Assembly (NCBI GenBank): GCA_017548605.1
Contig: JAFYZT010000045.1
Location: forward strand, 4,332 to 68,331
DNA length: 64,000 bases
Direction of reading: 5' to 3'
Origin: Prevotella sp.
GTDB lineage: Bacteria > Bacteroidota > Bacteroidia > Bacteroidales > Bacteroidaceae
Part shown: positions 388-51,093 of the stretch, one piece after another
How positions within the stretch are numbered: position 1 is the first letter of the stretch
Layout of the letters: each line of letters starts with the position of its first letter
The notes under the pieces: model-generated
Database searches by the model: none
What the model saw: the letters and a program-made list of their open reading frames with translations, nothing else
Told to the model about the DNA's origin: nothing
Made by a program: the position numbers and the translations under genes

Positions 388-415
388 CCCTCCCTTTGGG
401 AGGGTCGGGGTGGGT
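388..415 (+). repeat. REP-like unit (CCCTCCC hairpin plus G-rich tail)
   Basis: ccctccctttgggagggtcggggtgggt. Confidence 0.85.
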
Positions 416-418
416 TCC

Positions 419-1621
419 TCACGTTGTTTGTCTTCCGGGATAACTTTCCAGAGCTTTGCGGAGCACGATGAGGGCATGCACCAAATCTTCTTTCTTCAGC
501 ACGTAGGCGATACGTACCTGGTCGATGCCCGCACCAGGGGTGGTGTAGAAGCCCGAGGCGGGGGCCATCATCACCGTGCAGCCTTCATAGGTGAACTCCT
601 CGAGGCACCAGCGGCAGAACCGCTCGGCATCATCGACAGGCAATTTGGCCACGGTGTAGAAAGCACCCATGGGAATAGGGGAATAGACGCCGGGTATGCG
701 GTTCAGACCGTCAATCAAGCATTTGCGCCGCTCCACATATTCGTCGTACACCTCGCGGTAATACTCTTCGGGAGCGTCGAGTGAGGCTTCTGCCACTATC
801 TGACCGATAAGCGGCGGTGACAGACGGGCCTGGCAGAATTTCATCACGGCAGCGCGCACGGTGGCATTCTTCGTGATGAGGGCGCCGATGCGGATGCCGC
901 ATTCGCTGTAACGCTTCGACACAGAGTCGATGAGGATGACGTTCTGTTCAATGCCTTCCAGGTGGCAGGCACTGATATAAGGCGAGCCTGTGTAGATATA
1001 TTCGCGGTACACCTCATCGGAGAAGAGGTACAGGTCGTATTTCTTCACCAGGTCGCGTATCTGGTTCATCTCCCTGCGGGTATAGAGGTAGCCCGTGGGG
1101 TTGTTGGGGTTGCATATCATGATGGCGCGGGTGCGCTCGTTGATGAGCTCCTCGAATTTCTCTACCTTCGGCAGTGAGAAACCCTCGTCGATGGTGGTGG
1201 CGATGGTACGTATCTTCGCACCTGCACTGATGGCGAAGGCCATATAGTTGGCGTAGGCAGGTTCGGGAACAATAATCTCGTCGCCAGGATTCAGACAACT
1301 CAGGAAGGCAAAGAGCACCGCCTCGCTGCCGCCCGAGGTGATGATGATATCTTCGGGCGTGACGTGAATGTTGTATTTCGCGTAGTAGCCTACCAGTTTC
1401 TCTCGGTAACTCAGGTAGCCCTGCGAGGGGGAGTACTCCAGGATTTCGCGGTCGATGCTCTTCAGTGCCGCCAGTCCCTCTTTCGGTGTGGGCAGGTCAG
1501 GCTGGCCTATATTCAGATGATAGACCTTGGTTCCGCGCTTCTTGGCAGCCATGGCCAGGGGGGCGAGTTTGCGGATAGGCGATTCGGGCATTTCTACGCC
1601 GCGAAGTGATATGTCGGGCAT
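419..1621 (-). CDS. PLP-dependent aminotransferase, class I/II (aspartate/aromatic type)
   Basis: 400-aa ORF. Motifs NIGQPD, NPNNPTG and SVSKRYSECGIRIG (Schiff-base Lys context) are typical of fold-type I aminotransferases. A -7 box lies upstream at 1719-1727. Confidence 0.9.
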   Translation of the reverse strand: MPDISLRGVEMPESPIRKLAPLAMAAKKRGTKVYHLNIGQPDLPTPKEGLAALKSIDREILEYSPSQGYLSYREKLVGYYAKYNIHVTPEDIIITSGGSEAVLFAFLSCLNPGDEIIVPEPAYANYMAFAISAGAKIRTIATTIDEGFSLPKVEKFEELINERTRAIMICNPNNPTGYLYTRREMNQIRDLVKKYDLYLFSDEVYREYIYTGSPYISACHLEGIEQNVILIDSVSKRYSECGIRIGALITKNATVRAAVMKFCQARLSPPLIGQIVAEASLDAPEEYYREVYDEYVERRKCLIDGLNRIPGVYSPIPMGAFYTVAKLPVDDAERFCRWCLEEFTYEGCTVMMAPASGFYTTPGAGIDQVRIAYVLKKEDLVHALIVLRKALESYPGRQTT

Positions 1622-1718
1622 TGGTTGAGTGTTGAGTGGAAGTTAAGAATTAAGAGTTGAGAGTTAAGCAGATACGCCTGTGGGGTATAGTCTTTGCTCC
1701 TTGCTCCAAAATTTGGGT

Positions 1719-4635: not shown

Positions 4636-5094
4636 ATGAGATCAAGAACAGCCATTTGGTTTGAAACCAAAGTGAGGTATGAGAAGACCATCGACGATGG
4701 TTCACAGAAGAAAGTAACGGAACAATATACGGTCGATGCATTGAGCTTCACCGAGGCCGAGGCAACCATCATCGAGGAAATGTCGTCGTATATCAGCGGC
4801 GAATTCGAGGTGTCCGACATCAAGAAGGCTACCTATAAAGAGGTGTTCTTCAGCGAGGCTGCCACCGACGACCGCTGGTACAAACTGAAACTGCAGTTTA
4901 TCACCATCGACGAGAAGACGGAGAAGGAGAAACGCACCAATAACTATTTTCTGGTACAGGCTGCCACACTGCATGGTGCCGTTAAGTATATCGAAGAGGC
5001 TATGAGCAAGACCATGATTGACTATGTGATTGCCCAGGTGGCAGAGACACAAATTATGGATGTGTTTGAGCATCAGACGAAGACAGAGGGCTGA
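4636..5094 (+). CDS. DUF4494-family protein
   Basis: 152 aa. The N-terminus W-FETKVRYEKTIDDG-QKKVTEQYTVDALSFTEAEA-IIEEM matches my memory of the Bacteroidota DUF4494 family. Confidence 0.75.
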   Translation: MRSRTAIWFETKVRYEKTIDDGSQKKVTEQYTVDALSFTEAEATIIEEMSSYISGEFEVSDIKKATYKEVFFSEAATDDRWYKLKLQFITIDEKTEKEKRTNNYFLVQAATLHGAVKYIEEAMSKTMIDYVIAQVAETQIMDVFEHQTKTEG

Positions 5095-5096: not shown

Positions 5097-5127
5097 ACCC
5101 ATCCCCAGCCCCCTCTCAAGGAGGGGG
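5097..5127 (-). repeat. REP-like unit, inverted orientation
   Basis: acccatccccagccccctctcaaggaggggg. Confidence 0.8.
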
Positions 5128-5168
5128 TGAAGAGGAGTGGGATACAATGAGTGACAAGTGACGAATGA

Positions 5169-10529: not shown

Positions 10530-10566
10530 AATAAGTCCTGATGGAATCGTTTCATCAGGACTTATT
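10530..10566. terminator. bidirectional hairpin terminator
   Basis: 14-bp perfect stem AATAAGTCCTGATG/CATCAGGACTTATT with T-rich flanks on both strands. Lies downstream of the M6 protease gene. Confidence 0.6.
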
Positions 10567-16243: not shown

Positions 16244-16348
16244 TGTTAAATCATATACATTTCGGTGTATAATTATACGTACTTTGAAATTTAACGTGTA
16301 AATTTGCACCGTGTTTTTCATGGTATTAGATTATTAAGGTTAATTAAG

Positions 16349-16379
16349 ATTGGTTGTCGTGAGACAATCAATTTTTTTT
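16349..16379 (+). terminator. intrinsic terminator after DUF3256 gene
   Basis: 10-bp stem ATTGGTTGTC/GACAATCAAT (one G-U pair), GTGA loop, then a T8 run. Confidence 0.7.
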
Positions 16380-16435
16380 GTGCCCATTTTTCCCCGGAAA
16401 ACGAAGAAACTTTTATGCTTTATTAGCCCTTAGCC

Positions 16436-16541: not shown

Positions 16542-16913
16542 TCAGAACGGATGCATAGGGCGGCGTAAGGCGCGAGTGCGCTGGCGGTTGGCCTGTTCCT
16601 TTAGTTGGAGCAGCAGGGTTTCGCTGCGCTTCTCGTAGGAAGGGGCGGCTTCGGGGTTTACCGTGAGCAGCCATCGCCATACGATACGTTCGGTGAGAAA
16701 ATCGACGAGTGTGTCGCGTGAGGGGCACCAACGAAGCCAGGGTCGGGCCTCTTCGAGGGCACTCAGGTAATAACGGGTGAGCAGTTCGTCGTCGTACTCG
16801 TTGGTGGCTATTCGTTCATAATGGTCGGGTATGTCTGTCGTCTGACGGCTGCCCTGATACGCGGTGGTCATTGCCACCTGACGCATCACTCTTTCTTTCA
16901 ATGGGTTTTTCAT
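16542..16913 (-). CDS. hypothetical protein, last gene of the leftward phage-like operon (possible head-tail connector; weak)
   Basis: 123-aa ORF. Its ATG overlaps the stop of the 896-aa ORF (ATGA at 16910-16913). No recognisable motif. Confidence 0.55.
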   Translation of the reverse strand: MKNPLKERVMRQVAMTTAYQGSRQTTDIPDHYERIATNEYDDELLTRYYLSALEEARPWLRWCPSRDTLVDFLTERIVWRWLLTVNPEAAPSYEKRSETLLLQLKEQANRQRTRALRRPMHPF

Positions 16914-19600
16914 GGTTCAATATGGTATTTGCACCCTCCCTTTGGGAGGGCTGGGGTGTGTGTCCTAATTATCATATGGCTGATACGTTCGTCGCTTGCC
17001 ATCCATCCTGCTATGGCGATACGGTGCCATCGCCAGGGTGAGCCCGTCGGTAGTTGGAGAACAGGACAGCGGCTGCTGCCCAACAGGTGCCAGTGGAACT
17101 GGTCGTTACTGCCCCAGAGCATGAGGCAAATGAGCGGTTCCCTCCCCTCATGTCGCTTGCGGAACAGTCCGCATAGCTCCACTCGCCGCCACCGTTGCCA
17201 CTCATGGGTGGCAGTGCTGATCTGTCGGGTCAACGCCACGACGGGGATGCAGTCGGTTTCTTCAGCCCCATATTCCACCAATCCCCATTCGCCGCTATCG
17301 CTGTCGCAGGTGGCATGGAGCGTCTGCGTAGGGTCGATGATGCTTATCTGTCGCCGCTGCTTGTCGTAAATCAGGCGGCTGTTGCTGCTCCAGGAGAGCC
17401 GTCCACAGGGTAGGTGAGCAAACCGTTCGCCGAAGAGCGTGTTCATCATCATATCGAAATAGGGTAGGGTGGATGTGTCGAACAGTTCACCGCTCAAGGC
17501 ATCACCCATTCGTGAGAGAGTGCCTCCGTCAAGTCTGACCAGTCCCTGTTCACTGAGGTATGCCACATGGTCGTCGGTCTCGACAGGTTGGCCCGCCACG
17601 CATGGATAGCGGCTCACTTGGTACTTGTCCCGCCAAGCGATGCCGTCGCCACGCTGCAATGCCCACACACCGTCGCTGCAGAAAGCGTAGAGAGGGTATT
17701 GACCGAATTGTATGCCACCGTAGCGTTTCACACGTGACGTGAGGGCATTGATGGTGCCGTCGCCGATGGTTATTCGTCCCCTTGCGGGAAACACGAGCGG
17801 GTTATCGGCCACCGATGTGTACATCCTGTTGCTCCTCATTGCTGACGATGGCGTTTGTTGGGCCATGGCTTCGGCAGCCATCCATTCCTCGGCAGTCTCG
17901 CGAGTCCATAGGTCTGCCACGTCGTGCCATCGATGGTCGGTGGCGTCATATCTCATGCTCCGTGCTTGTTGGAGGATAAGACTGTGTACTGCCGCCCTGC
18001 CGCTGGCGTGACCGCCGCCGTTGCCGCTCCACAGTGCTATGGCCATGCCGCTTGTGCCCAGTGGGCGCAGACTCACGCTCTTTCTGTAGAAATGACTGCC
18101 TGAACTATCGGTGAAATGTAAGTGTAAGTCCATGGCGTATGCCCGTCGGTCAGGATAGGCCAGTATGCCTGGCAGCGGGTAACGCAGGTGGTCGATGAAG
18201 GCCCGTGTGCCGGCTGTGGTGCCCTCTCGCAGATGTACCACGCTCACCACGTCGGCCGGCAACCCTTCCTCCTGTTCGTCGATGTCGGGCCGTTCGCCGC
18301 ACAGACATTCCATCAGTCGGTCGTCGTCTGTGGTGCGTTCTTCACCGTCGAGGTTCCGAAACATATAGCTCACTGGTATGCTGAATGCACTGTTTTCTTT
18401 GGTGGTGATGGCAGCCGCGCAGAGGTGGCTGTCGAGGGTTCGCAGCACGCGGGCACCGAATGAGTGCCGGCGCATGTCACTGATGACGAGCGTGTCGCCG
18501 TCGCTGTTTCGGGGAATGACCACAGCCTGTCCGAAGTCGGTCAGGGCGATGTGCAGGGCATGCTGGAATGAGGTGCCCGCCAGACGTGTCGTGAGGGTGT
18601 TGGCATCGGCCCAGCTGTAACACAGGCGCGTGGCCATGCCCTCGCTGTCGGTGTCAATGGTTGTTGCGCCGCTCAGGTCGAGCATTGTCATTGGCGGGCT
18701 CTGGTAGATGTCAATGCCTTGCACCAGCTGTCTGGCCATCACCTCGTCGATGTCTTCCGCCAAACGAACCTTTATGGTGTGACTGTGCAGACTGGTGTTG
18801 GTGCAAAGCATCTTCTCATCGCCGTTACTTACCACAGTCAGTGTGGGCTCACCGTCGGCAGGTGCCAGGGCGAAGGGGTTGCTCATCAGTATCTGACTGC
18901 CGTCGAACAGGCGCAGTGTAGCGATGATGAACCGGATGTGTTTGTGCTCGTGGCTGCCGCCATGGCTCAGCTCGCGGTCGAGGATCTGTTCCATCCGCGC
19001 CAGGGCGAGCGAGGCACCTGTGGCCACGTCGTTGTTTCGCCACTCCGTGAACAGCTGTCTGAGCAGTGTGGCTTGTCCGTTCACCACCTCGTCGGCATGA
19101 AGCAGGTAGCGTTGCAGGGTGCTGTCAACGGGTGTGCGAAGCGTCACGCGACGTTGCATTCGCTGATCCACCTCTATGGTGTAACGAAGCGTCTCTTGCC
19201 GAAGGTGATGCCATGTGGCGTCGCTCTTGTCAAAGAAATGATACACCAGCCCATCATCGGAAGCAAAGACCAACAGTTCACCCATGGAACTGACTGCGTT
19301 GACTTTTTGGCCGTCGTCGTACCAGAAGGGATGTAGCGTGTCGCTGTCGGCGCTCCAATGATAGCTGTAACCATTGTCGTCATCGTAACGCTCGAAGATG
19401 TCGATACCTTGGTGGCGGATAATCCTGCGGTAAGCATGTCCGTCGGTATCAACACTCATTTCCGTGTCATGTTCGCTGATTTGTCGGGGATACCATTCTC
19501 CGGCATGGTTCACGAGGTTGATGGCGAGGCTCAGCTCGCCATCACATGCCTCGTGCTCCGAGGGCATGGTCTTCATGCCCTTCAATGTGATGTTTTTCAT
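16910..19600 (-). CDS. 896-aa orphan protein of the phage-like cluster (virion/tail component?)
   Basis: Long intact ORF, translationally coupled on its 3' side. No motif I recognise. The last ~15 codons (IRTHTPALPKGGCKYHIEP) are read from a REP-like unit at 16934-16962. Confidence 0.75.
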   Translation of the reverse strand: MKNITLKGMKTMPSEHEACDGELSLAINLVNHAGEWYPRQISEHDTEMSVDTDGHAYRRIIRHQGIDIFERYDDDNGYSYHWSADSDTLHPFWYDDGQKVNAVSSMGELLVFASDDGLVYHFFDKSDATWHHLRQETLRYTIEVDQRMQRRVTLRTPVDSTLQRYLLHADEVVNGQATLLRQLFTEWRNNDVATGASLALARMEQILDRELSHGGSHEHKHIRFIIATLRLFDGSQILMSNPFALAPADGEPTLTVVSNGDEKMLCTNTSLHSHTIKVRLAEDIDEVMARQLVQGIDIYQSPPMTMLDLSGATTIDTDSEGMATRLCYSWADANTLTTRLAGTSFQHALHIALTDFGQAVVIPRNSDGDTLVISDMRRHSFGARVLRTLDSHLCAAAITTKENSAFSIPVSYMFRNLDGEERTTDDDRLMECLCGERPDIDEQEEGLPADVVSVVHLREGTTAGTRAFIDHLRYPLPGILAYPDRRAYAMDLHLHFTDSSGSHFYRKSVSLRPLGTSGMAIALWSGNGGGHASGRAAVHSLILQQARSMRYDATDHRWHDVADLWTRETAEEWMAAEAMAQQTPSSAMRSNRMYTSVADNPLVFPARGRITIGDGTINALTSRVKRYGGIQFGQYPLYAFCSDGVWALQRGDGIAWRDKYQVSRYPCVAGQPVETDDHVAYLSEQGLVRLDGGTLSRMGDALSGELFDTSTLPYFDMMMNTLFGERFAHLPCGRLSWSSNSRLIYDKQRRQISIIDPTQTLHATCDSDSGEWGLVEYGAEETDCIPVVALTRQISTATHEWQRWRRVELCGLFRKRHEGREPLICLMLWGSNDQFHWHLLGSSRCPVLQLPTGSPWRWHRIAIAGWMASDERISHMIIRTHTPALPKGGCKYHIEP
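16934..16962 (+). repeat. REP-like unit inside the 3' end of ORF 16910-19600
   Basis: ccctccctttgggagggctggggtgtgtg. Confidence 0.8.
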
Positions 19601-22368: not shown

Positions 22369-22395
22369 CCGCCGAAAACAGGATAACACGATACC

Positions 22396-30211: not shown

Positions 30212-30212
30212 T

Positions 30213-30240: not shown

Positions 30241-30305
30241 AGTTCAGATTCATCACCCGACACTCGTCACTCGTAACTCGTCACTCGTAACTCATCATTA
30301 TAACC

Positions 30306-32416: not shown

Positions 32417-32444
32417 GGTTTTTTTCCACAAAATTACTCCCAAA

Positions 32445-32489
32445 GTTAAATGGATGACACACTTTTCACGGGAAAAGACAATATCTTTG
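32445..32489 (+). promoter_or_regulatory. conserved phage-module promoter, copy 2 (scaffold-like gene)
   Basis: GTTAAATGGATGACA, with 37 nt to TATCTTTG. Confidence 0.7.
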
Positions 32490-32510
32490 CCACGAACAAA
32501 ACCAATAACC

Positions 32511-33143
32511 ATGAAAACAATAACACAACAAACTGAACAACAGAGCCTTGACAATCTCAAGGAACAGGTAATGAACCGGATAACATCACGTCATCCCCAA
32601 CTTGACTCAGCCGATGAAAAAGCACTTTTCCAAGCCGTTTACGACGATTACGACGAAAACGACGTTTTGCAGGAACTCTACGATGAACTGGTGGAAAAGA
32701 TGGAGGCGATGACCACCGCCAAAAAGAAAGAAGAGGCCGAGTACGAAAGCAATCTCGACCAGACCATCGTCGCCATCGAGCAGATGAAACAAGAGGAGTC
32801 AGCCGATGGTGAGCGCATTGACGAGGCGGTGGCGTGGTTGCAGAAGGTGGGCGATGAGGTGGCCCGGGGACGGTTGCTCCCTGATGACATCCGGATGGTG
32901 ATGAAAGGAGCGGCTTACGATGTCGATGTGGCCGCCGCCGACCATGATGGAGAGGTGCGCGGACGCAACTACGTCATCGAAGAACACCTGCGTACTGCTA
33001 AGGATACGCCCGCCGACGTGCCAGCCCTGCGCGGCACGGGCGGTATGAACACCACCCAAGCGCTTCCTCGCGAAGTCCTCGGTGCTTTGGTAGGCACCAC
33101 CCGTCCCACTATCTGGGAACGGGGAAAAGAAAAGAGGTATTAA
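32511..33143 (+). CDS. acidic coiled-coil protein, scaffold-like (tentative)
   Basis: Start set at ATG 32511, downstream of the -7 box at 32482-32489. 210 aa, very acidic and helical. Its position between portal and capsid genes fits a scaffolding protein. Confidence 0.55.
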   Translation: MKTITQQTEQQSLDNLKEQVMNRITSRHPQLDSADEKALFQAVYDDYDENDVLQELYDELVEKMEAMTTAKKKEEAEYESNLDQTIVAIEQMKQEESADGERIDEAVAWLQKVGDEVARGRLLPDDIRMVMKGAAYDVDVAAADHDGEVRGRNYVIEEHLRTAKDTPADVPALRGTGGMNTTQALPREVLGALVGTTRPTIWERGKEKRY

Positions 33144-33146
33144 AAT

Positions 33147-33176
33147 ACCCACCCCTTCCCTCCCAAAGGGAGGGGG
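33147..33176 (-). repeat. REP-like unit, inverted orientation
   Basis: acccaccccttccctcccaaagggaggggg. Confidence 0.85.
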
Positions 33177-33270
33177 TTGGAATGTTGAGTTTTAAATGGT
33201 GAATGTTGACGAGTTGTTGAGACATATGTCGAAAAATTTTCGCCTCGCGATGTAGAATTGTTCAATGAAT

Positions 33271-34845: not shown

Positions 34846-34884
34846 CTCCCCCTCCTACTCCCCCCGAGGGGGAGAGAGAATAGC
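34846..34884. repeat. REP-like variant (AGAGAATAGC type)
   Basis: ctccccctcctactccccccgagggggagagagaatagc. Confidence 0.8.
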
Positions 34885-35063
34885 CTGTAAATTCTTTTTC
34901 ACTCATTGTTGTCTGAACCATACAACGAATTATACGAATTATTACACAATGGTGAGCGAAGCGAACACGAAAAATCGCAACTTGTTGCGTCAAACGATAC
35001 TGCGACCGGCAGGAAAAGGGAGCAGTACCTTAGTGAATGAGCGACGAGTAGGAGCGGTTACAT

Positions 35064-35215
35064 CCCCTCCCAATGTTGGGAGGGGCTTGGGGAGAGTAGG
35101 TACCCTCCTTAGGCAAGGAGGGGCGGGTGGTTGTGAAAGCAAACTATCTCCTTAGGCAAGGAGGGGCGGGTGGTTGTGAAAGCAAACTATCTCCTCGGGG
35201 GAGCAGGTGGGGGGC
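35064..35215. repeat. cluster of REP-like hairpins including a ~44-bp direct duplication
   Basis: cccctcccaatgttgggagggg; 2x ctccttaggcaaggaggggcgggtggttgtgaaagcaaactat; ctcctcgggggagcaggtgggggg. Confidence 0.8.
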
Positions 35216-35336: not shown

Positions 35337-36686
35337 ATGGCAACAGAAAACAATCTCTATCAGGGTGGTGCGGAGAAATACAAGGGGACGACAGAACCCA
35401 ACCCCCTCAATCCGCAATTCACCGACAATCCCGATGGTATCCTCACCGAGACCGTGGCACGCGAAATCGCTGATCCGGAGATGTACCAGAAAGACATCGA
35501 CGAGCGCATCACCAAAATCCGTCCCATGGCGACACCCGTCGACCAGATATCACGCTTCGCCACGCTTCAACAGGCATCATCGTTCGAAGTGAAGTACTAC
35601 AGCGTTGGCACCCGTCCGGTCATGACGACTCTCACAACAGCTGTCACGGCGAGTGCTTCGGCCACCAGCGTGCCTCTCGAGGTGGCCGACCCTGACATGT
35701 TCACGCTCGACGATACCATCCGCGTGGTGGGTGTCAAGGCCATCACCGACTTTCGTGGCACCGCCTACAGCAACAACGACCCCACGACACCCGACCTCTG
35801 CCTGTGCGTCTGTGGAAAGACGTCGCAGGGCCAGCCCATCGTCTTCGCTGTCAACGGCAATGTGGTGAACCGACAGAACATTGGCGTACCCAGCATAGCG
35901 GCAGGCACCAAACTTATCCGCATGGGAAAGAGCTGCGGCGAGCTTGACGTACAGACGGGACGATTCAATAACCTGCCCACCTCGGAGCTGCAGTATTGCC
36001 AGAACTTCATGGCGCAGATAGAGCAGTCGACGCTTGACAAGATAGCCAATAAAGAGGTGAACTGGGGCTTCTCCGACCTGGAGGAAGACTCCATCTACGA
36101 CATGCGACTGGCGATGGAAAATTCCTTCCTCTTCGGTGACATGAACATGGTGAAGCACACTACCAAGGACGGCATGGCGCAGTGGTTCACCAAAGGCATC
36201 TGGTGGCAGGCAGGCAAGGACATCGAGGTGGGCACGACCGTCAATGGTGTGACGACCATCACCGACAATGACCTCGTTGACATCTCACGCGACCTGTTCG
36301 TGGGCACGGGCATCGGCAACAAACGCAAGGTGTTGCTCTGTGGCAGCGACTTCCTCGCCGCACTGTCGAAGATTGATTCCGACAAGTTCCGCCTGAAAGA
36401 TACCGTGGAGGTGTGGAACCTGAAGTTCAAGAGCTGGGAGACCGACTTTGGCGAGATTCTGGCGATGCACGATGAGCTGTTCGATATGAACGGCATGGCC
36501 GACTGTGCCTTCGCCCTCGACCCGGAGTTCCTGACGAAAAAGACGCACCTGAGCTGGAGCCGTAACATCCTCGACCTGAAGAAGGCGGGAGTGCGTAACA
36601 CCGACGCCGTGGTCATCCAGGAAATCAGCTGCCTCTACCTCCGCTATGCCAAGGCCCATGCCCGCCTGCGCCTCGCAGAGGAATAA
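35337..36686 (+). CDS. HK97-fold-like phage major capsid protein (tentative)
   Basis: 449 aa. The N-terminal DIDERITKIRPMATPVDQISR segment and the overall pattern resemble major capsid proteins of the SU10/DUF5309 type as I remember them. Carries the conserved promoter module upstream. Confidence 0.65.
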   Translation: MATENNLYQGGAEKYKGTTEPNPLNPQFTDNPDGILTETVAREIADPEMYQKDIDERITKIRPMATPVDQISRFATLQQASSFEVKYYSVGTRPVMTTLTTAVTASASATSVPLEVADPDMFTLDDTIRVVGVKAITDFRGTAYSNNDPTTPDLCLCVCGKTSQGQPIVFAVNGNVVNRQNIGVPSIAAGTKLIRMGKSCGELDVQTGRFNNLPTSELQYCQNFMAQIEQSTLDKIANKEVNWGFSDLEEDSIYDMRLAMENSFLFGDMNMVKHTTKDGMAQWFTKGIWWQAGKDIEVGTTVNGVTTITDNDLVDISRDLFVGTGIGNKRKVLLCGSDFLAALSKIDSDKFRLKDTVEVWNLKFKSWETDFGEILAMHDELFDMNGMADCAFALDPEFLTKKTHLSWSRNILDLKKAGVRNTDAVVIQEISCLYLRYAKAHARLRLAEE

Positions 36687-36689
36687 GAA

Positions 36690-36720
36690 ACCCACCCTGA
36701 CCCTCCCAAAGGGAGGGGGG
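36690..36720 (-). repeat. REP-like unit, inverted orientation
   Basis: acccaccctgaccctcccaaagggagggggg. Confidence 0.85.
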
Positions 36721-36862
36721 GATGGAAGGGGCAAGGAGCAAGGGGCAAGGAGCAAGAGATATGCCAGTAGGGTAATGGCTTAACTTCTTAACTACTTAAC
36801 TTCTTAACTCCTTAATTACACTCATCACTCGTCACTCATCACTCGTCACTCGTCACTATACC

Positions 36863-37078
36863 ATGAAAACTTATATTGCCAAATCCCATATCTGCATCAA
36901 TGTGATGATGCCCGAGGGCGTACGTCACGTCAGGTTCATTCCCTGTACCCTCGGCAACAGCTACCTCATGACCGACGACCCCATCCTCCAGATGGCCCTC
37001 GAATCGCATCCTCGCTACGGAACACTATTTATTGAAAACCCACCCCGTCCCTCCCCAAGGGAGGGTGTTCTTAGATGA
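36863..37078 (+). CDS. small hypothetical protein downstream of capsid gene
   Basis: 71-aa ORF. The last ~13 codons (ENPPRPSPREGVLR) are read from REP unit 37038-37065. Confidence 0.45.
   Translation: MKTYIAKSHICINVMMPEGVRHVRFIPCTLGNSYLMTDDPILQMALESHPRYGTLFIENPPRPSPREGVLR
37038..37065 (-). repeat. REP-like unit inside the 3' end of ORF 36863-37078
   Basis: acccaccccgtccctccccaagggaggg. Confidence 0.85.
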
Positions 37079-37938
37079 CTTTCTTGAGTTTCAAATATAT
37101 ACACATTATTTCCTCCATGTCTATAACTTCCTCTAATCCAATTCCCACACCCACTCCTCCAACTCCCTCCCTTTGGGAGGGCCGGGGTGGGTATTCACCA
37201 TCCTCTCTTTCCACTCCCTCCCTTCGGGAGGGCCGGGGTGGGTATCCCACTCCCTCCCTTCGGGATGGTCAGGGTGGGTATCCCACTCCCTCCCTTTGGG
37301 AGGGTAGGGGTGGGTATGTTCCTTTAAATGTCATTTTCCACGACGTGCGTGTGGCCCTCAACATGAACCATGCCTGTCAGGCGCTTATCGACGAGGACAA
37401 CATCGATACGCTCACGCTCAACGAGCTGATACGCAACCAGATAGAGCCTGTGGCCGCCGAGGTGGTGAAAGCCGCTCTTTTGCTTGATCTTGGCGAGGGA
37501 AAACCTTTCGGTGGTGACATTCTCTGGGACGAGGTGCCAGGCCATGGCTCAGGCTCAGTGATTCTACCTCCCGACTTCCTTCGTCTGGTCTTGTTCCGTA
37601 TGTCGGGTTGGCGGCAGGCAGCCACGCTCATCGATGCCGCTTCGCCACGCGCCATGTGGCAGCGGTCACCTTTTCCCGGTGTTCATGGCAACCCGTGCCG
37701 TCCCGTGGCATTCATCAGTCCTTCTTCATTCGGCAACCAGTTGCATTTCTTCGCCTCCGCCGACGGCTACCATGCCCAAATCGTCGAGGCACGTTACATC
37801 CCCGTCCCGTGTCTCCAGTCCCTCGACAGCACCGATAACCCCTCGCCGGAGCAATGGCTCTCCCTGCCCCCGCGCCTCTATCATCCTTTCATCCAGGCCC
37901 TCGCCGAACGAGTTCAACTTATCATTCAAAACAACTAA
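37075..37938 (+). CDS. head-tail adaptor-like protein (tentative); first ~96 codons are REP units, so the real start may be 37363
   Basis: Codons 20-80 translate four tandem REP units (PSLWEGRGGY x4). The unique part starts near MNHACQALIDEDNIDTLTLNELIRNQIEPVAAEVVKAA. Confidence 0.55.
   Translation: MTFLSFKYIHIISSMSITSSNPIPTPTPPTPSLWEGRGGYSPSSLSTPSLREGRGGYPTPSLRDGQGGYPTPSLWEGRGGYVPLNVIFHDVRVALNMNHACQALIDEDNIDTLTLNELIRNQIEPVAAEVVKAALLLDLGEGKPFGGDILWDEVPGHGSGSVILPPDFLRLVLFRMSGWRQAATLIDAASPRAMWQRSPFPGVHGNPCRPVAFISPSSFGNQLHFFASADGYHAQIVEARYIPVPCLQSLDSTDNPSPEQWLSLPPRLYHPFIQALAERVQLIIQNN
37160..37316 (+). repeat. four tandem REP-like units (in frame with ORF 37075-37938)
   Basis: 4x c(t/a)ctccctccct(t/c)(t/c)gggagggccggggtgggta, with the third copy degenerate. 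Confidence 0.85.
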
Positions 37939-37978: not shown

Positions 37979-38046
37979 ACACATAGTAATTTATGACACT
38001 CAACACTCATCACTCAACATTCAACATTCATCACTCGACCTTACCA

Positions 38047-38077
38047 CTCCCTCCCTTCGGGAGGGCCGGGCTGGGTT
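38047..38077 (+). repeat. REP-like unit
   Basis: ctccctcccttcgggagggccgggctgggtt. Confidence 0.8.
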
Positions 38078-38090
38078 TACTTTATCATCC

Positions 38091-40337
38091 ATGAAAAACC
38101 ATTCTTTCAACCACAAGTCTATCTACGCCCCTCCCTCGGGAGGGGATGGGAGAGGGGCTCTCTTTCCCGGAGGGGATGGGAGAGGGGCTCTCTTTACCGA
38201 CCTCCATGTCGGTGGACAGCTCACTGCACACCACGACCTCAACGTCCTCGGCAATGTGCATATCTCTGGCGCACTCTCCTGTGCGCAAGTCAATAACCTC
38301 GATGCCGGTTTCTTCGTGTCTGAACAGGCATTGCTCACGGCTCATCCTCTGCCAACGGTGGGCATGCATGCCACGGTGTTTCATGAGGAAGCAGGCCAGC
38401 CCGTCACAGCCACCATCTATGGCTGTGAGCAGGCGGGACAATGGCGAGCCCTGGCCGCACAGGTGCCCGTGACTGTCAGCTGGCAACGGTCATCCTTGCC
38501 AGATCCTGCCTACAGCATACCCTTCTCACATTTCGTCGTCCTTGACAGCATCGACAGCCTGCCGCCTGTTCCCCGTGACACGATGACGGGCTTTGTCGTC
38601 GATGGTATCATCTATGTCTTCGTGGCCAAGGGAGGCGACACGAAGGGCGGCCGTTACCTGGCCTGCGGCCCTTTGCACGGCATACAAGGTGAACAGGGTC
38701 CGCAGGGCGGTCAGGGTCCCGTGGGACCGCAGGGACCTGCCGGGCCGCAGGGCATCCAGGGCAATACGGGTGTCTCCATCGGCGACAACTATGAACTGTT
38801 CTCCACCCTTCAGGCTCTCGATGGCAAGACCACCGGACAGAAAGCCGCTATGATACCCGACGGCAACGTGGTGGAGGAGACAAACTATATCGTTGATGAC
38901 CTCGCGGCGAAAAAAGCCTACACCAACCGCATCATCGATGCCAGCGGAGCATCCGTCCAGCCACCTTCGGGCAACGGCAACCGACAAGTGGTCATCTTCG
39001 ACATTGCACAGTATGTGGGCTACACCATCGCTTTCGCTTCCTACAACAACTACGCGGGAGCCTATTCATGGGCGGTGTACCGGGGCGACACCACCATATC
39101 GCTCACAGGACTGTCGCTGAACACCGACGTGCGTGTGATGTCGGCTGCCACCACAGCCAGGGGCAGCTATATGGACAGTATCACCGTGGAACAAGGCGAC
39201 AGGTATCTCGCCCTGGTGTGCTACAACGGACATACTGCAACGGCGAAGACGACGAAGAGCGTGAAGACCATCCTCCTCGAAGACTCAACGCGGCTGGGAG
39301 CGGTGGAGAACAGGCTCGATAGCATCGAGACACAGGGACTGAACACCATCGGTCCCCTCAATGCCGACCGCGACAGTATGGTGGCGAACCTCGGCTACAC
39401 CGCTTCTACGCTGCGCCTGCTCCATTTCTCCGACCTGCACTATGACCCGGCGAACATGCAGCGTATCATGGACTGGAGAAACGCTCACGCCGATGACATC
39501 GACGACATCCTCAATACGGGCGATACGGTGAACAGCCGCTACGGTACGGCATTGGGCTATGGTAATGTGGAAGAGGTGGAGCGCATCCTCAACACCATCG
39601 GTAACCACGACATCGACGATACAGGAGACGGCTCCTATATCCATTCGGGTGTGGATGGCTATAATACCTACCTCAAACCGTTCATCAACAACTGGGACGT
39701 GACACAGCCCGACAATGCCGAGGCTGGCGGTAAGTGCTACTATTCTAAGGACTATGTGGCGAAGGGCATACGGCTCGTCGTGCTCGACACCATCGTGGCA
39801 TATTCCAGCGGCAGCGCGCAACAGACATGGTTCCGCCAGGTGCTTGCCGACGCTCGGACACAGGGTCTCGCGGTCGTTGTGGCCTGTCATTGGCTCAAAG
39901 GCGACCGCATAACCATACCTAACCACTTCGCACCGTGGCGTGACACATGGGCCGACTTCGAGGGGAAGGGCAGTGCGGGCAGTGCCGTGGTGTGTACCGA
40001 CGTACAGACGTTCATCAACGATGGCGGTGAGTTCATCTGCTATCTCGTCGGACATAGCCATGCCGACCATATCGGAACGATGAAGATTCATCCGCAGCAG
40101 CTGTGCATCGCCGTGGGAGCGGCCAACGGACTGCCACCCACCAATATCTATCATGTCAATCACGGTGGCGAGGTACGCCGACAGGGAACGCGCTCGCAGG
40201 ACAACTTCAACATCATCGGCATCAACACCTCTTCGCACACCATCACCCTCGTCAAGATTGGCATCGACAGCACCATCTATGCCCAGCACAAAGACTTCAT
40301 CCGCATCAATTATCTTTCAATGTTAGTGGAAGAGTAG
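38091..40337 (+). CDS. tail-fibre-like protein: collagen-type GXY repeats plus C-terminal calcineurin-like metallophosphoesterase domain
   Basis: Start set at Met 38091. Has GIQGEQGPQGGQGPVGPQGPAGPQGIQGNTG and phosphoesterase motifs LLHFSDLHYD, NTGDTVN, IGNHD and VGHSHADH. Codons 12-34 are read from duplicated REP-like units. Confidence 0.8.
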   Translation: MKNHSFNHKSIYAPPSGGDGRGALFPGGDGRGALFTDLHVGGQLTAHHDLNVLGNVHISGALSCAQVNNLDAGFFVSEQALLTAHPLPTVGMHATVFHEEAGQPVTATIYGCEQAGQWRALAAQVPVTVSWQRSSLPDPAYSIPFSHFVVLDSIDSLPPVPRDTMTGFVVDGIIYVFVAKGGDTKGGRYLACGPLHGIQGEQGPQGGQGPVGPQGPAGPQGIQGNTGVSIGDNYELFSTLQALDGKTTGQKAAMIPDGNVVEETNYIVDDLAAKKAYTNRIIDASGASVQPPSGNGNRQVVIFDIAQYVGYTIAFASYNNYAGAYSWAVYRGDTTISLTGLSLNTDVRVMSAATTARGSYMDSITVEQGDRYLALVCYNGHTATAKTTKSVKTILLEDSTRLGAVENRLDSIETQGLNTIGPLNADRDSMVANLGYTASTLRLLHFSDLHYDPANMQRIMDWRNAHADDIDDILNTGDTVNSRYGTALGYGNVEEVERILNTIGNHDIDDTGDGSYIHSGVDGYNTYLKPFINNWDVTQPDNAEAGGKCYYSKDYVAKGIRLVVLDTIVAYSSGSAQQTWFRQVLADARTQGLAVVVACHWLKGDRITIPNHFAPWRDTWADFEGKGSAGSAVVCTDVQTFINDGGEFICYLVGHSHADHIGTMKIHPQQLCIAVGAANGLPPTNIYHVNHGGEVRRQGTRSQDNFNIIGINTSSHTITLVKIGIDSTIYAQHKDFIRINYLSMLVEE
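38128..38195 (+). repeat. duplicated REP-like variant inside the 5' end of the fibre gene
   Basis: cccctccctcgggaggggatgggagaggggctctcttt + cccggaggggatgggagaggggctctcttt. Confidence 0.75.
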
Positions 40338-46690: not shown

Positions 46691-49600
46691 TTATTTCCTC
46701 ACATATTTCTTTCCTTGCTTAATCACGATACCGCGATAGTTGTCGCCAACGCGCTGACCGGAGGTGTTCCATACGGCACCTTCGCCATTATTATCCTCCT
46801 CGGTGATACTGTCGATACCAGTGGTCTCGTCAACATAGAGCACATCGTTGGCATTGGGCGTGGTCAGGCGCAGGTAGGCCTTGCCCACACTTACCGTTTG
46901 ACCGGCCTTGGCCTTTTGGAAACCGGTCTTGCCTGTCGAGGTCTTCACATAACGATACACATAGCCGTAGTCGGCAGCGGTCACGGTGTACACCTCGTCG
47001 AGGTTAGCCACCAACAAGTTGTCGCTGTAATCGTCGGCACTCTCCGTCGTTGCCAGAGGAATATGGTAGGTGCCGGGTGTTCCCTTTACCACGATGCCCG
47101 TCTCGGCGGGTACGATGGTCACAGCCGACAGCCGCACACCGCCTGTCTCTACCTTCTCCACGGCCTTGTAGGCTTTCACCTCAGCAGCACTGAAGTTGAG
47201 GGCGTACGGTCCGCTGTAGGATGTGCCGGTGGCACCTGTTGCGATGGTGATATCGACACCGTTGTCCAGCACATAGTTGTTATCTTCGGAATTACCCGAC
47301 GACAGGTCAACGGTTCCTTCGGGAGCCAGGGTGATATAGCCCTCGGCCTCAACGGTCACGGTGTAGGTCTTGTCGGTCTGCACCACCTCCACGTCGAACG
47401 TGCCGTCCTCACCCGTGGTGGCGGAGTATTCAACATCGTTGTCATCGTTGCGCAACGTCACCTTCGCACCGGCCACAGCCTCTTCACTGGCATTCTTCAC
47501 GCTGCCGGTGAAATGGCTCCCGGCTGGTATGGTGATGGACAATACAGGTGAGGGATTGCCACTGGACAGGGTGAGTTCTGTAGATGTGGTATTATCGTTC
47601 TTGCCAGCCCATGTAAGATTATACGTGTTGTCTGTCGCGAACTGTGTCCTTTGGCTGCTATTCTCGTAAGTATCGGCATCAGAAAGCACTACAAGACGAA
47701 GGTTCTTGCCAGTATAGACAAAGGGGCTCTCAGACAAATCCGCTTTGAAATATTCCACAGGCTCACTGGCCGAACCATGGGCTTCGATAGTGAGTTCATT
47801 GTCGTAAATCTTTGTCATGCCATTGGTGTAGGGCTTGGATTTTGCGGTAGAACCGTCATCCTCCGTATTTTCCAACCACATCTGAACATGCGCATTTATT
47901 GATCCGGCTGGCTTGTAACTCAAAAGAGCCAGTTTTAATATCTGTGCGCCATCGGTAACACCATATTCCTGCAGTTTCTCTTTTGTATAGACGGTTTCAG
48001 CCAAACTATGCTTATAGTAGAAGCAGAGAGGATAGGTGTTGCTCATCGTCTTGTTCTCCAGAACGGTGATATCGCCACCTGCGCTCTCGGCTGCTACCGT
48101 TAGCGTATAGGCATCGGTCTGTACCGTCGTGGTGGGAGCGGCCAGGGCGATATAGCAGTTGCTGAAGGTGCCGGCCTCGTGCGGCGTGAAGGTGAAGGTG
48201 AATGTGGCGCTTTCCATCGAAGCTACGTCAACACTCTCCGCCTCTGCCACGGCCTTGCCGTCAACATACAGCGTAGCGGTGTAGTCGGCGGCGGCAAGCG
48301 TCGTCGCGTTGTAGTTCGTCGCCGTCACCGTAACTGTGTACACATTGTTAGTGGTGGCGGTGGTAGGAGCATCGAAACTCTCAATCTTGAAGTCGACGCC
48401 TTCCACGAGTTGGATGTCTTTCTCAAGGCTCGTGCCCTGGAAGGTCACTGTCAGCTCGTCCTCGCTCATCGGGAAGCAGTTCTTCTCCGTGTAGTTATGG
48501 CTCAAGGTGTAGGTCTTGGTGTCCTGCATCACCATGAAGTCGAACTGACCTTCGCTGTCGGTAGTGCCGCTGTAGGTAACACCGTCTTCTGAGGTCAGCG
48601 TGATGGTGGTGCCGGCGATGGGTGTCACCGTCTGGTCGGCATTCTTGATGGTCAGCGTACCCGTGAAGTGGCTCGCCTCCTTGTCGTAGAGCAGGGCAAT
48701 CCACGGCAACTTGGCATTGTCGCTGCCATAGTAACTGTCGCTCCATGTGCTCTTTGCCTTGTAGGCGGCGGTGGAGAGGTTGGATTGTGCAAAATTGACA
48801 CCTGTCTGTGTGGCATCCTGCACGCACTGGGCATGGATGCGCAGGTTTGTACCGTCGTACTCAAACGGCTGGGCAAGGGTGATGGTCATGATGTCCACCA
48901 TGTTGGCTTCACCATAGCTGCCACCTTTCTTAAAGGTGTAGCTGCCGTCGAATACCTTGGTCATGCCAGTAGTGTTGGTCAGGTCGTCGGTGGGGTCGCT
49001 GCCCACGACGGGTGACGTGGCCTCGGTGCTGCCTATCCATACCTGAACGGGAGCTGTCACCTCACTGCTGCTGTAACCCTTGAACACGATGCCTTTAATC
49101 ATCGTGCCAGAGGCGATGTCATAACTCTGCAAGTCGGAGGCTGTCCAAATCATATCTGAATAGCTGCCGGTGGAAGAGGTCTGAACGGGAATGGAAGTGC
49201 CATACGAATAGTAGTTACCGATGAGGGCCTCACCCTTCGGCTCTTCCTCGCTGATGGTAATCTCCACCTCGGAACTGCGCACAGTGGTGCCGTCGGCCAG
49301 TGTCAACTCGATATAGCTGTTGAATGTTCCCGTCTCATGAGGCATGAATGTGAACGAGAAGGTCTTCTCTGTGCGTGTGGTGAGACTCTGTGATGCTGCC
49401 TCGGCCACTGCCACGCCGTTGATGTAGTATTTGGCGGTGGCGGTCTCCGTGGCGTTCTTCAGGTTCTTTACCGTCCATGTGGCGGTCACCTCGTTATTGA
49501 CCTCGCCCTCCGTGGGAAGGTCCTCTTCCACGCTGATGATATCGTGAGCCATTTCAACGAGCGCGAAACCGTAGAAGTTATCAAGTCGCGCACCACCGTT

Positions 49601-50965
49601 GAACATGATATAATAGTCGCCACCCTCGGCAATGGTGAAGTTGAATTCCGAGAAGTCGTAGTCGCTCGATGAGCTGCCGCCCACCTGGGCTCCGGTATAG
49701 TCAGCTTCCTCAATGGTCTTCACGGTGGTCCATGTCTTGCGGTCTTTCGACACACTCACGGTCAATGTATAACCGAAGTAGCTCGCTCCGTATTTGGCGG
49801 CATCGAAATAGAACGTTTCACCGTCCTCGGCATGGAGCAGCGGAGTGATGAAGATGGGGTTGGTGCCCGGTGAGTAGTCAGTGGGACTGAGGTAGTAGCC
49901 GTTGGCGGCGAGATGTACGTAACTGTCAATCTTATATTCGCTGTAGTCACTACCTTCAGGCCAGGTCTGGTCCTCGAAGTCCCACGACCAGCGCGGGTTG
50001 GCCTCTTCCACCTTCATGGATACCTTCGAGGTCTTCACGCTCGCACCATCGGGGAAGACAATCTCCGCATAACTGGTGTGGCGGCCACGTGTGGTCGGGG
50101 TGTAGGTGAAGGTAAATGTCTGTGTGGCATTCACGGCAACAGCCACAGCCTCGGCTGTGGCCACTTCCACATCGTCGAAGTAGTATTTCACGGTGTAACC
50201 ATCGGCGGCCTCGGCAATGCCTTGGTTCACAATGGTAAAGCTCGCTTCGAACGGCTCATTGATGGTGGCCTGCGTCGGCAGGTTCGTCTCCGTAATCTTG
50301 AAATTGTGCTCACTGGCCACACCCGTCTCAATCCACAAGAAGGGAGAAGAGACCAATGAGAAAATACCGGTGTTCTGGCGGAACATGGTGTTCTTGAAGT
50401 CGGTAAAGGTTGATTTTGCGCAATAAGCATTCAACGCTCTGTTCAACTTGGCATCGCTTTCGGGCTTGACAACCATCACGCGCAGGTTGTTGCCGGCATA
50501 ACGGAAACTGTTGGGCACGGCAAATTCCATGATGATACCATCATCACCAGGGGCACTCACGGTGTAATTGCCATCGTAAATCAGCGTCATCCCCAACTCG
50601 TCAGGGTCGGCCATGTCGTAGTTGTACTCTGTGGTGCTGCCTTCTACGTATTGGGTGGTAGCGGGAGCATCATCAGTGGTATTGCCTATCCAAACCATCA
50701 CGGGAATGGTACCCGTATCGCCTGTGTAGATGCCTTTATAGACGATACGTTTGATGCCTGTTCCTTCTTCCAATCCGGCTGCTGTGAGGTCTGCCTTCTT
50801 GTAGATGGTCTCAGAATAACTTTGTGTCTGGTTGGCGGCAATCAGACGATTACTGTAAGTCGTCTGTTGGTCGGCGTCACCCACAAAAAGTAAATCCTGC
50901 GCCCACACCTGTCCGTATCCGAACAGCGTGAGCATCATGAGTAACAATAAACTGAGTTTTTTCAT
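46691..50965 (-). CDS. 1424-aa multi-domain surface protein with T9SS sorting domain, preceded by a cobalamin riboswitch
   Basis: Signal peptide MKKLSLLLLMMLTLFGYGQVWA. Three copies of a ~140-aa N-terminal-type module, CARDB-like repeats and two carboxypeptidase-regulatory-like units (TDSEGQFDF, GEDGTFDV). Tail is AVWNTSGQRVGDNYRGIVIKQGKKYVRK. Confidence 0.85.
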   Translation of the reverse strand: MKKLSLLLLMMLTLFGYGQVWAQDLLFVGDADQQTTYSNRLIAANQTQSYSETIYKKADLTAAGLEEGTGIKRIVYKGIYTGDTGTIPVMVWIGNTTDDAPATTQYVEGSTTEYNYDMADPDELGMTLIYDGNYTVSAPGDDGIIMEFAVPNSFRYAGNNLRVMVVKPESDAKLNRALNAYCAKSTFTDFKNTMFRQNTGIFSLVSSPFLWIETGVASEHNFKITETNLPTQATINEPFEASFTIVNQGIAEAADGYTVKYYFDDVEVATAEAVAVAVNATQTFTFTYTPTTRGRHTSYAEIVFPDGASVKTSKVSMKVEEANPRWSWDFEDQTWPEGSDYSEYKIDSYVHLAANGYYLSPTDYSPGTNPIFITPLLHAEDGETFYFDAAKYGASYFGYTLTVSVSKDRKTWTTVKTIEEADYTGAQVGGSSSSDYDFSEFNFTIAEGGDYYIMFNGGARLDNFYGFALVEMAHDIISVEEDLPTEGEVNNEVTATWTVKNLKNATETATAKYYINGVAVAEAASQSLTTRTEKTFSFTFMPHETGTFNSYIELTLADGTTVRSSEVEITISEEEPKGEALIGNYYSYGTSIPVQTSSTGSYSDMIWTASDLQSYDIASGTMIKGIVFKGYSSSEVTAPVQVWIGSTEATSPVVGSDPTDDLTNTTGMTKVFDGSYTFKKGGSYGEANMVDIMTITLAQPFEYDGTNLRIHAQCVQDATQTGVNFAQSNLSTAAYKAKSTWSDSYYGSDNAKLPWIALLYDKEASHFTGTLTIKNADQTVTPIAGTTITLTSEDGVTYSGTTDSEGQFDFMVMQDTKTYTLSHNYTEKNCFPMSEDELTVTFQGTSLEKDIQLVEGVDFKIESFDAPTTATTNNVYTVTVTATNYNATTLAAADYTATLYVDGKAVAEAESVDVASMESATFTFTFTPHEAGTFSNCYIALAAPTTTVQTDAYTLTVAAESAGGDITVLENKTMSNTYPLCFYYKHSLAETVYTKEKLQEYGVTDGAQILKLALLSYKPAGSINAHVQMWLENTEDDGSTAKSKPYTNGMTKIYDNELTIEAHGSASEPVEYFKADLSESPFVYTGKNLRLVVLSDADTYENSSQRTQFATDNTYNLTWAGKNDNTTSTELTLSSGNPSPVLSITIPAGSHFTGSVKNASEEAVAGAKVTLRNDDNDVEYSATTGEDGTFDVEVVQTDKTYTVTVEAEGYITLAPEGTVDLSSGNSEDNNYVLDNGVDITIATGATGTSYSGPYALNFSAAEVKAYKAVEKVETGGVRLSAVTIVPAETGIVVKGTPGTYHIPLATTESADDYSDNLLVANLDEVYTVTAADYGYVYRYVKTSTGKTGFQKAKAGQTVSVGKAYLRLTTPNANDVLYVDETTGIDSITEEDNNGEGAVWNTSGQRVGDNYRGIVIKQGKKYVRK

Positions 50966-51051
50966 ATAAGGTTATATTTAGAAATTTGATAATGTACTCT
51001 ACATCCGTACTGTACAAAGGTCAGTTAACTTTCCCAAACCAGCACCTTTCT

Positions 51052-51093
51052 CCCTCCCTTTGGGAGGGTCGGGGTGGGTGTCAGGCCGGGGTG
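51052..51093 (+). repeat. REP-like unit between riboswitch and start of the 1424-aa gene
   Basis: ccctccctttgggagggtcggggtgggtgtcaggccggggtgg. Confidence 0.85.

Follow-up and report, generated by a model that had tools for sequence, protein, structure and literature searches.

Three-block mirror repeats lie in fixed polarity just past stop codons in a Prevotella genome

The 64,000-nucleotide (nt) stretch of a rumen Prevotella sp. genome analysed here (hereinafter designated the window) spans positions 4332-68331 of contig C41 (JAFYZT010000045.1) in a 3.25-Mb assembly of 55 contigs with 48.7% G+C and 92% completeness. Between positions 385 and 51082 it carries a dense family of short dispersed repeats (hereinafter designated units), each composed of a homopyrimidine arm, a short loop, a complementary homopurine arm and a G-rich block (hereinafter designated the tag) that mirrors the purine arm; genome-wide, the units lie in fixed polarity at stop codons. 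The main-family pattern GGGAGGGTCGGGGTGGG matches the window 12 times with at most two mismatches and CCCTCCC-N2-8-GGGAGGG matches 17 times, whereas dinucleotide-preserving shuffles yield no match to either. All sub-families, a covariance model and a structural scan together give ~25 units at ~20 loci, where a preliminary description of the window had counted ~22 loci and ~30 units of a dense repetitive extragenic palindromic (REP)-like family. Unit density in the window is ~4 times the genome average. Across the genome, CCCTCCCNNNGGGAGGGNNNGGGTGGG has 129 exact matches and the same pattern reversed has none; the main family comprises 211 matches with at most two substitutions, and inclusion of the sister sub-families brings the oriented units to 284-289 (~290 copies). 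Perfect hairpins with an all-pyrimidine arm number 379, compared with 21 in a third-order Markov control. These counts confirm the family noted in the preliminary description.

Throughout, the strand given for a unit is that of its G-rich strand. Main-family units start 4 nt past the stop codon of an aminotransferase gene (419-1621, −) at 385-418 (+), where the C-rich strand is in the sense orientation (hereinafter C-sense), of the open reading frame (ORF) 32415-33143 (+) at 33144-33177 (−), and of a capsid-like gene (35337-36686, +) at 36687-36720 (−). Another starts 2 nt past the stop codon of an FHA gene (29708-30211, +) at 30210-30243 (−) and is kept in 10 conspecific strain contigs, as the 33144-33177 unit is also kept in strains. 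The unit at 16931-16964 (+) lies in the last codons of ORF 16910-19600 (−), which reads through it and ends in ...HTPALPKGGCKYHIEP before the stop, and the unit at 19646-19679 (+) is C-sense relative to the surrounding minus-strand genes. At 37035-37068 (−) a unit forms an inverted pair, tags outward, with a tandem array of four main-family units at 37162-37318 (+; 37165, 37216, 37252, which is degenerate, and 37288), and the copy at 38046-38079 (+) has a mutated tag, GGGCTGGG. G-poor tandem heptamers (CACTCGT, CACTCAT, TAACTTC) lie between a unit and the next start codon at 30244-30300, 36775-36860 and 37985-38040; their copy number varies among conspecific strains, and the run after 30244 is about twice as long in strain contigs L125, L128 and L129. 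Beyond the 36687-36720 unit come purine heptads (GGGGCAA, GGAGCAA), at 36720-36760. Cobalamin riboswitches score 93 bits at 51186-51383 (−) and 85 bits at 62919-63102, and a main-family unit at 51049-51082 (+) separates the first from the start of its ORF (46691-50965, −). This unit is C-sense in the riboswitch 5′ leader and preceded by a partial tag; a look-up of a 63-aa peptide near it gave no record. The two riboswitches and a FopS small RNA assign the window to Bacteroidota.

The other units of the window have different arms or stem lengths. A GAGGGGG-arm unit at 5097-5130 (−) starts ~5 nt past the stop codon of ORF 4636-5094 (+), and a unit with an 8-bp stem at 26627-26662 (+) lies in the last codons of a Sel1-repeat gene (26619-27410, −). 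The divergent region 21808-22395 holds a unit whose stem has 8 bp and whose loop has 7 nt, at 21969-22008 (+; CCCCTCCC-attgtag-GGGAGGGG-gca-GGGGTGGG); a GGGGAGGG-arm unit with the tag GGGAAGGG follows at 22150-22183 (−). Downstream of ORF 22396-24483 (+), a CTCCCCC/GGGGGAG locus at 24484-24535 (−) consists of a partial copy and a unit at 24510-24535 with the tag GTGGGGG, and upstream of a portal-like gene lies a CCCCCTC/GAGGGGG unit with the tag GGGGGAG at 24808-24836 (+); both are missing from three conspecific strains. A CCCCCTCC/GGAGGGGG unit with the tag GGGGGAGG sits within the annotated portal-like ORF at 25263-25298 (+). The same ORF has G-rich blocks at 25107-25215 and 25298-25312 (GGGGCAAGG words; a 15-nt TGCAGGGGGAGGTTC duplication), whose presence varies among strains; the called product ranges from 488 to 528 aa. 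A second CTCCCCC/GGGGGAG unit, with the tag GAGGGGG, is found at 34848-34874 (−), and 38128-38156 (+) holds a unit whose 8-bp stem encloses a loop of 2 nt and which is followed by a duplicated GGGGATGGGAGAGGGGCTCTCTTT block.

At 35062-35131 (+), two units (CCCCTCCC..GGGAGGGG, and CCCTCCT..AGGAGGG with the tag GGGTGGT) form a composite. The ~190-bp segment that contains them (34970-35161, upstream of the capsid-like gene) is reversed in L125, L128 and L129 at 95% identity and may be an invertible or rearranged promoter-region segment. A composite repeat reading ttcacaaccaccccgc-CCCCTCCT-tgccta-AGGAGGGG-tacctaccctccccaag-CCCCTCCC-gacatc-GGGAGGGG-atgtaaccg occurs at six sites at least, namely 35064-35131 in the window and C4:62074, C11:6939, C15:22047, C20:23231 and C37:4503 elsewhere; none of the 16 units of this composite-repeat sub-family is stop-anchored. 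The ~20-40 kb part of the window is a phage-like module, its portal gene being of P22 type and its capsid gene of SU10 type; in other samples it sits within chromosomal contigs as long as 562 kb. The three main-family units of this module stay in place in ten strain contigs of the same species (95.7-100% identical), and the neighbouring sub-family units and heptad repeats are variable.

On the usual mRNA strand a unit spans ~34 nt and reads R-A-W-A / CCCACCCY / RR / CCCTCCC / NAA / GGGAGGG / (A or T)G, with an information content of zero beyond its ends in a position-by-position profile. Read on the G-rich strand, every sub-family has the same order of blocks: homopyrimidine arm, loop of ~3 nt (mostly exactly 3), homopurine arm, 3-nt linker and tag, which is the block order of a class II intrastrand triplex. 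At least 10 sub-families coexist in the genome, with arms such as CCCCTCCC, CCCCCTCC, CCCCTCCT, CTCCCCC, CCCCCTC, CCCTCCCC and others, and arm and tag change jointly among them. The tag repeats the purine arm in mirror image, G facing G and either T or A facing A: GGGAGGG is followed by GGGTGGG, GGGAGGGG by GGGGTGGG, GGAGGGGG by GGGGGAGG, AGGAGGGG by GGGGTGGT, GAGGGGG by GGGGGAG, and GGGGGAG by GTGGGGG or GAGGGGG.

Asymmetric arms separate a mirror from a direct repeat, and the tag fits the mirror 125 times and the direct repeat 14 times in this genome, and 53 and 12 times at loci from ~60 other genomes, where the additional arm types GGGGAGG, GGGGGAGG and AGGGAGGGG also conform to the mirror rule. 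The linker measures 3 nt in 248 of 307 and 214 of 246 cases (80-87% of units). The base facing the arm's A is T in 248 cases, A in 87 and G in 2, that is, T or A in 335 of 337. In a register fixed beforehand (mirror, 3-nt linker), the association of arm and tag has an odds ratio of 8.5 over 225 distinct pairs and 38 arm types, whereas other linker lengths and slid or direct readings, taken as controls, each give at most 1.1. A mirror tag accompanies 294 of 377 hairpins (78%), compared with 3.2% of shuffled flanks. Since arm and third-strand tag change together in many coexisting sub-families, the mirror relation is maintained and not accidental. A homopurine/homopyrimidine hairpin that leads, past a short loop, into a G/T or G/A block in mirror image corresponds to the textbook architecture of purine-motif fold-back triplexes. 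At the sequence level, the tag has the antiparallel (mirror) register and the composition for G·G-C, T·A-T or A·A-T triads, so that in design the unit is a class II purine-motif (reverse-Hoogsteen) fold-back triplex, in which the third strand would be laid onto the hairpin.

The preliminary description had read the differing yet self-complementary stems as a sign of selection on structure. Complementary stem changes do distinguish the sub-families from one another, but they occur only there: within the main family the stem is near-invariant, departures from it are mostly unpaired, and all measures of covariation equal those of shuffles. Since each sub-family arose by amplification of copies, independent evidence comes down to ~12-15 arm types instead of hundreds of events; nearly all of these types conform to the mirror rule. 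As RNA, the C-rich strand is predicted to fold into a single clean 7-bp hairpin (−13.4 kcal/mol, 82% of the ensemble) that leaves the C-rich tag unpaired, and the G-rich strand into several competing folds; as DNA, either strand is predicted to form a hairpin of ~−7.3 kcal/mol.

In agreement with the preliminary description, we found no published account of this Prevotella family in the literature searched, and Rfam holds no family that matches at gathering thresholds, the weak E-value matches all being far below threshold. Elements of the same kind are published: Escherichia coli BoxC was rediscovered as the "potential intrastrand triplex" (PIT) and later named TMECO (Hoyne and Maher 2000, 2002; Holder et al. 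2015; PMC4666352). Like the Prevotella units, TMECO, exemplified by CCCTCTCCC-TGT-GGGAGAGGG-CCG-GGGTGAGGG (PMC4666352), consists of a pyrimidine arm, a 3-6-nt loop, a purine arm, a second 3-nt loop (CCG or TTA in TMECO, YYR in Prevotella) and a G-rich third strand in which T or A faces the A of the arm. Both are G/C-rich, ~34-37 nt long and dispersed, with occasional inverted pairs, strain-variable loci and very uneven copy number among close relatives, and in both the complementary strand is a C-rich candidate for the pyrimidine motif. TMECO oligonucleotides melt at 70-82 °C in Mg2+ and give 18 imino signals in nuclear magnetic resonance (NMR), indicative of a triplex and not a quadruplex, and TMECO loci are rearrangement hot spots among strains; RNA does not form triplexes of the purine motif (PMC4666352). 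The Prevotella stem is shorter (7-8 nt versus 9 nt), the host phylum is Bacteroidota instead of Proteobacteria, and the ~290 copies of this genome compare with 23 in E. coli K-12 and a maximum of 143 in that survey. The TMECO consensus CCCTCNCCC-N3-6-GGGNGAGGG-N3-GGGNGAGGG has no match in the Prevotella genome. The Prevotella units have the TMECO design in a different sequence family. What is new relative to E. coli is polarity and stop-codon anchoring: E. coli TMECO has no orientation bias and no preferred distance from ORFs, whereas near stop codons the Prevotella units lie in one orientation in 101 cases and in the other in 2, usually 0-6 nt past the stop.

The 101 C-sense and 2 G-sense units, counted over all sub-families, fall in the interval from −60 to +15 nt around a stop codon; the corresponding numbers are 32 and 11 at 16-40 nt and 33 and 33 at 41-100 nt. 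In the first 0-6 nt after the stop codon, 63 units are C-sense and none has the opposite orientation. The unit starts at most 10 nt past the upstream stop codon in 66 of 159 cases, with a mode of 2-4 nt, and the hairpin feet peak at +12 to +16 nt. The loss of polarity beyond ~40 nt favours an effect of ribosome distance over a general effect of transcription direction. Units between same-direction genes have the G-rich strand as template in 96 of 117 cases, and divergent promoter-only regions contain just 9 of ~170 intergenic units. The perfect hairpins of at least 6 bp whose start lies no more than 30 nt past a stop codon include 107 in which the 5′ arm is all pyrimidine and 6 in which it is all purine; in the pyrimidine-armed set the feet cluster at +12 to +16, whereas those of other hairpins are evenly spread. 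A gene-caller-free test, in which ORFs of at least 100 codons ending no more than 12 nt before the tag are set against those on the hairpin side on the other strand, gives 79 versus 5 in this genome and 50 versus 4 in other genomes. The earlier placement of the units at gene ends or between genes therefore holds and can be sharpened to stop-codon anchoring with fixed polarity. The stop codon itself is ruled out as a fixed part of the unit by the stop-to-tag distance, which varies from 0 to 6 nt. Some 17 ORFs genome-wide run on across a unit to a stop codon close beyond it and so acquire C-terminal tails of 10-16 residues of the types PTPALPKGG.. and THPxPPxGR.. (for example ...PTPALPKGG.. and ...THPDPPKGREH, each followed by the stop), and a few units lie deep within long ORFs (C1:80091, C18:1893). 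No convincing replication-strand (GC-skew) bias of the units is found in the genome.

The family is patchy in the genus and its copies turn over. The covariance model matches 127 of 301 Prevotella genomes, with counts that saturate at ~23 per genome, as only 23 candidates were scored in each, and two single-contig genomes of the genus give at least 21 matches apiece; the exact pattern occurs in 1 of 24 same-genus genomes in a search of relatives, and the public contigs that share the repeat are overwhelmingly from rumen and gut Prevotella or Prevotellaceae. Copies occur in ~13 IMG/VR viral contigs, with the exact pattern in a few, and GenBank phages give no match. After the stop codon of a Na/Ca-exchanger gene (C32, reverse, ~75.9-76.1 kb; L151, L152), three strains have 1, 2 and 3 units, and the extra 60-nt block, which ends in ..GTGA, comes after the TGA stop codon and before the older unit; the gap between pfs and luxS holds 2 or 3 units depending on the strain. 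Neighbouring units form 63 tandem pairs, and inverted pairs have their tags outward in 15 cases and inward in 1. Coexisting sub-families, strain-variable arrays and patchy abundance together show that the copies multiply and turn over.

We interpret the units as Prevotella small dispersed repeats of the BoxC/PIT/TMECO type and consider, with moderate confidence, that they most likely act as a REP-like hairpin at the mRNA 3′ end. REP, bacterial interspersed mosaic element (BIME) and REPIN repeats of Enterobacteria and Pseudomonas are likewise 20-40-nt palindromes of high copy number at gene 3′ ends or between cistrons, in tandem and inverted clusters and with a likely hairpin role in mRNA, and REP units lie near or overlap stop codons (PMC3733652). 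The Prevotella units differ from them by a strictly homopurine:homopyrimidine stem with a mirror-image third block, and by the lack of a GTAG/CGTC tag and of a gene for a REP-associated tyrosine transposase (RAYT). In the mechanism that we propose, the triplex-type fold of the single-stranded G-rich DNA would matter for the generation or recognition of copies, and placement and polarity would be filtered at the level of RNA and ribosome. In the mRNA a unit would present an unstructured 10-12-nt C-rich spacer followed by a 7-8-bp GC hairpin (~−13 kcal/mol), which starts 12-16 nt past the stop codon and may thus stand just outside the terminating ribosome. Such a hairpin could serve, as enterobacterial REP does, as a 3′-end or intercistronic barrier to 3′-to-5′ decay rather than as an intrinsic terminator, whereas in the opposite orientation the hairpin would fall within the ribosome footprint and the copy would be lost.

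Several points weigh against this interpretation. The number of independent events (~12-15 arm types) is low. The gene calls come from a rough home-made predictor (2348 genes, 85.5% coding). Folding was computed with ViennaRNA, the model of which does not include triplexes, and a G-quadruplex and a triplex are indistinguishable by computation. Neither a clean empty-versus-filled site nor a target-site duplication was found, and the sharp anchoring at stop codons could reflect targeted insertion instead of selection. In E. coli, dimethyl sulfate (DMS) footprinting in vivo failed to reveal stable triplexes, and no effect of PIT elements as promoter, terminator or block to polymerase was measurable in vivo (PMC4666352); by analogy with these results, the triplex fold may be irrelevant in the cell.

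Two alternatives concern what the unit does as a nucleic-acid structure at its site. According to the preliminary description, the G-run tail fits a G-quadruplex (G4) and the functional feature is a switch of the 3′ arm and tail between hairpin and G4. The motif (four runs of at least three G, loops of 1-7 nt) is present in 206 of the 377 hairpins, mainly those with GGGAGGG and GGGAGGGG arms and also those with GGGGAGGG arms; the main sub-family reads G3-A-G3-N3-G3/4-T-G3, and the inter-run loops of the canonical unit, 1, 3 and 1 nt, are of the lengths that favour a stable parallel G4. The likeness to canonical G4 sequences is confined to this G-run pattern and to sub-families whose purine arm has a central A, because a mirror design around a central A yields four G-runs. 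A mirror tag occurs without the G4 motif in 106 hairpins of six sub-families (GGAGGGGG, AGGAGGGG, GGAGGGG, GGGGGAG, GAGGGGG and GGAGGG), whereas the motif occurs without a mirror tag in only 18; a G4 has no need of mirror symmetry or of a T or A set precisely against the A of the arm, and has no role for the strictly conserved complementary pyrimidine arm. The tail is therefore primarily the mirror of the purine arm, as the preference for the mirror over the direct repeat and the arm-tag odds ratio also indicate. Since the G-rich strand is usually the template (82% of same-direction contexts, 101 of 103 units near a stop codon), the mRNA contains the C-rich strand, and a hairpin/G4 toggle in mRNA does not apply. 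For TMECO a three-tetrad G4 is possible in principle according to its authors, and its imino signals fit a triplex (PMC4666352). We regard a G4 switch as improbable; in the main family a competition of G4 with triplex is conceivable. The second alternative takes the units as transcription stop signals that work without a U-tract, either through a factor-aided RNA hairpin (for example with Rho on the C-rich tag) or through a template structure that blocks polymerase. The GC-rich hairpin of an intrinsic terminator is present, but, as the preliminary description had remarked, the U-tract is missing: the following 10 nt are purine-rich and a T-run occurs on neither strand, so that the units are probably not classical terminators. 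Stop signals of another kind would fit the position directly past stop codons, the scarcity of units in divergent promoter-only regions, and the frequency of canonical hairpin-plus-T-run terminators in this genome, which is barely above background (9.4% downstream of genes versus 6.7% in the control). They would also fit the region 3′ of trmD in 30 Prevotella species (L160-L188), in which the first 100 nt past the stop codon differ wholly between species and hold canonical terminators (L176, L181, L184), hairpins of heptad or octamer repeats (L167, L169, L175, L166), a GTAGGGTGCGGCC-type REP array (L180) or, in the present genome, triplex-type units; the differing hairpin types at one position suggest a shared "post-stop hairpin" niche in the genus. 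However, 68% of stop-anchored units lie between same-direction genes, 45% of these with at most 150 nt to the next gene; unit arrays stand between pfs and luxS, and one unit stands between a cobalamin riboswitch and its ORF. The decay of polarity beyond ~40 nt fits ribosome distance better than transcription direction, and the E. coli PIT elements lack terminator activity (PMC4666352). A stop signal is accordingly an unlikely role for the units.

Two further alternatives concern how the copies arise and whether their third block is used. The units could be purely selfish, non-autonomous elements of the REPIN or MITE type (MITEs being miniature transposable elements with inverted repeats), mobilized by a transposase in trans and placed wherever insertion is tolerated. 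High copy number with near-identical copies, patchy abundance in the genus, copy-number polymorphism between strains, the REPIN-like excess of tags-outward inverted pairs, and the copies in the phage-like module and in viral contigs all speak for mobility of this kind. The preliminary description had noted that the window lacks a RAYT gene, and this extends to the genome: a search for Y1/RAYT genes (PF01797) detects them in control genomes and finds no match in this 92%-complete one. Y1 genes turn up in 18 of 22 genomes rich in units and in 7 of 12 poor in them, so that their presence does not track unit abundance, and those of unit-rich relatives are not flanked by units; a link to RAYT is ruled out on these three grounds. 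No gene is recurrently flanked by inverted units in the manner of a REPtron, no GTAG or CGTC tetranucleotide ends the palindrome (the 5′ end profile being RAWA-CCCACCCY), and no consistent target-site duplication, TA or TGA, is found at unit ends; DNA-level synteny with 40 relatives gave no empty sites, the relatives being too diverged. Moreover, tandem pairs and single units far exceed inverted pairs, the units have no convincing replication-strand bias, and tolerance alone leaves unexplained why 63 units lie 0-6 nt past a stop codon and none in the opposite orientation. A purely selfish origin therefore seems quite unlikely to us. A further possibility, which we also rate as unlikely, is that the three-block design has a use in the cell instead of being a fossil. 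In one version, the G-rich template strand would fold into a triplex at the DNA level, either in the wake of RNA polymerase or at a replication fork, and would direct new copies to stop codons or halt trailing polymerases. In the other, units with U-bearing C-rich tags, such as CCUCCCCC-N3-CCCCCUCC-CAA-GGAGGGGG, would form a pyrimidine-motif triple helix in the mRNA just past the stop codon and shield its 3′ end, in the way that some non-coding RNAs of eukaryotes and viruses have their 3′ ends protected by triple helices. If either version were true, the units would be the first case of a bacterial repeat family whose natural three-way covariation reveals a nucleic-acid triplex under selection.

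PIT/TMECO elements of E. coli have been known for 25 years with no demonstrated function and no in vivo evidence that the triplex is relevant. The Prevotella family adds natural covariation, in that arm and third-strand tag change together across sub-families, and a gene-linked placement rule, which renders hypotheses of ribosome spacing, 3′-end protection and targeted insertion testable. The units also extend ORFs, add C-terminal tails and generate strain variation. They are suspected of breaking assemblies, and it is advisable to mask or model them when genomes of rumen and gut Prevotella are annotated.

Two other features of the window lie outside the repeat family. A perfect 17-bp palindrome with a T-rich tail at 10530-10566 is a strong candidate for a canonical bidirectional terminator, the only one of its kind within the first 20 kb, and a small RNA of the FopS family of Bacteroidetes is found at 16311-16381 with a score of 72.6 bits.

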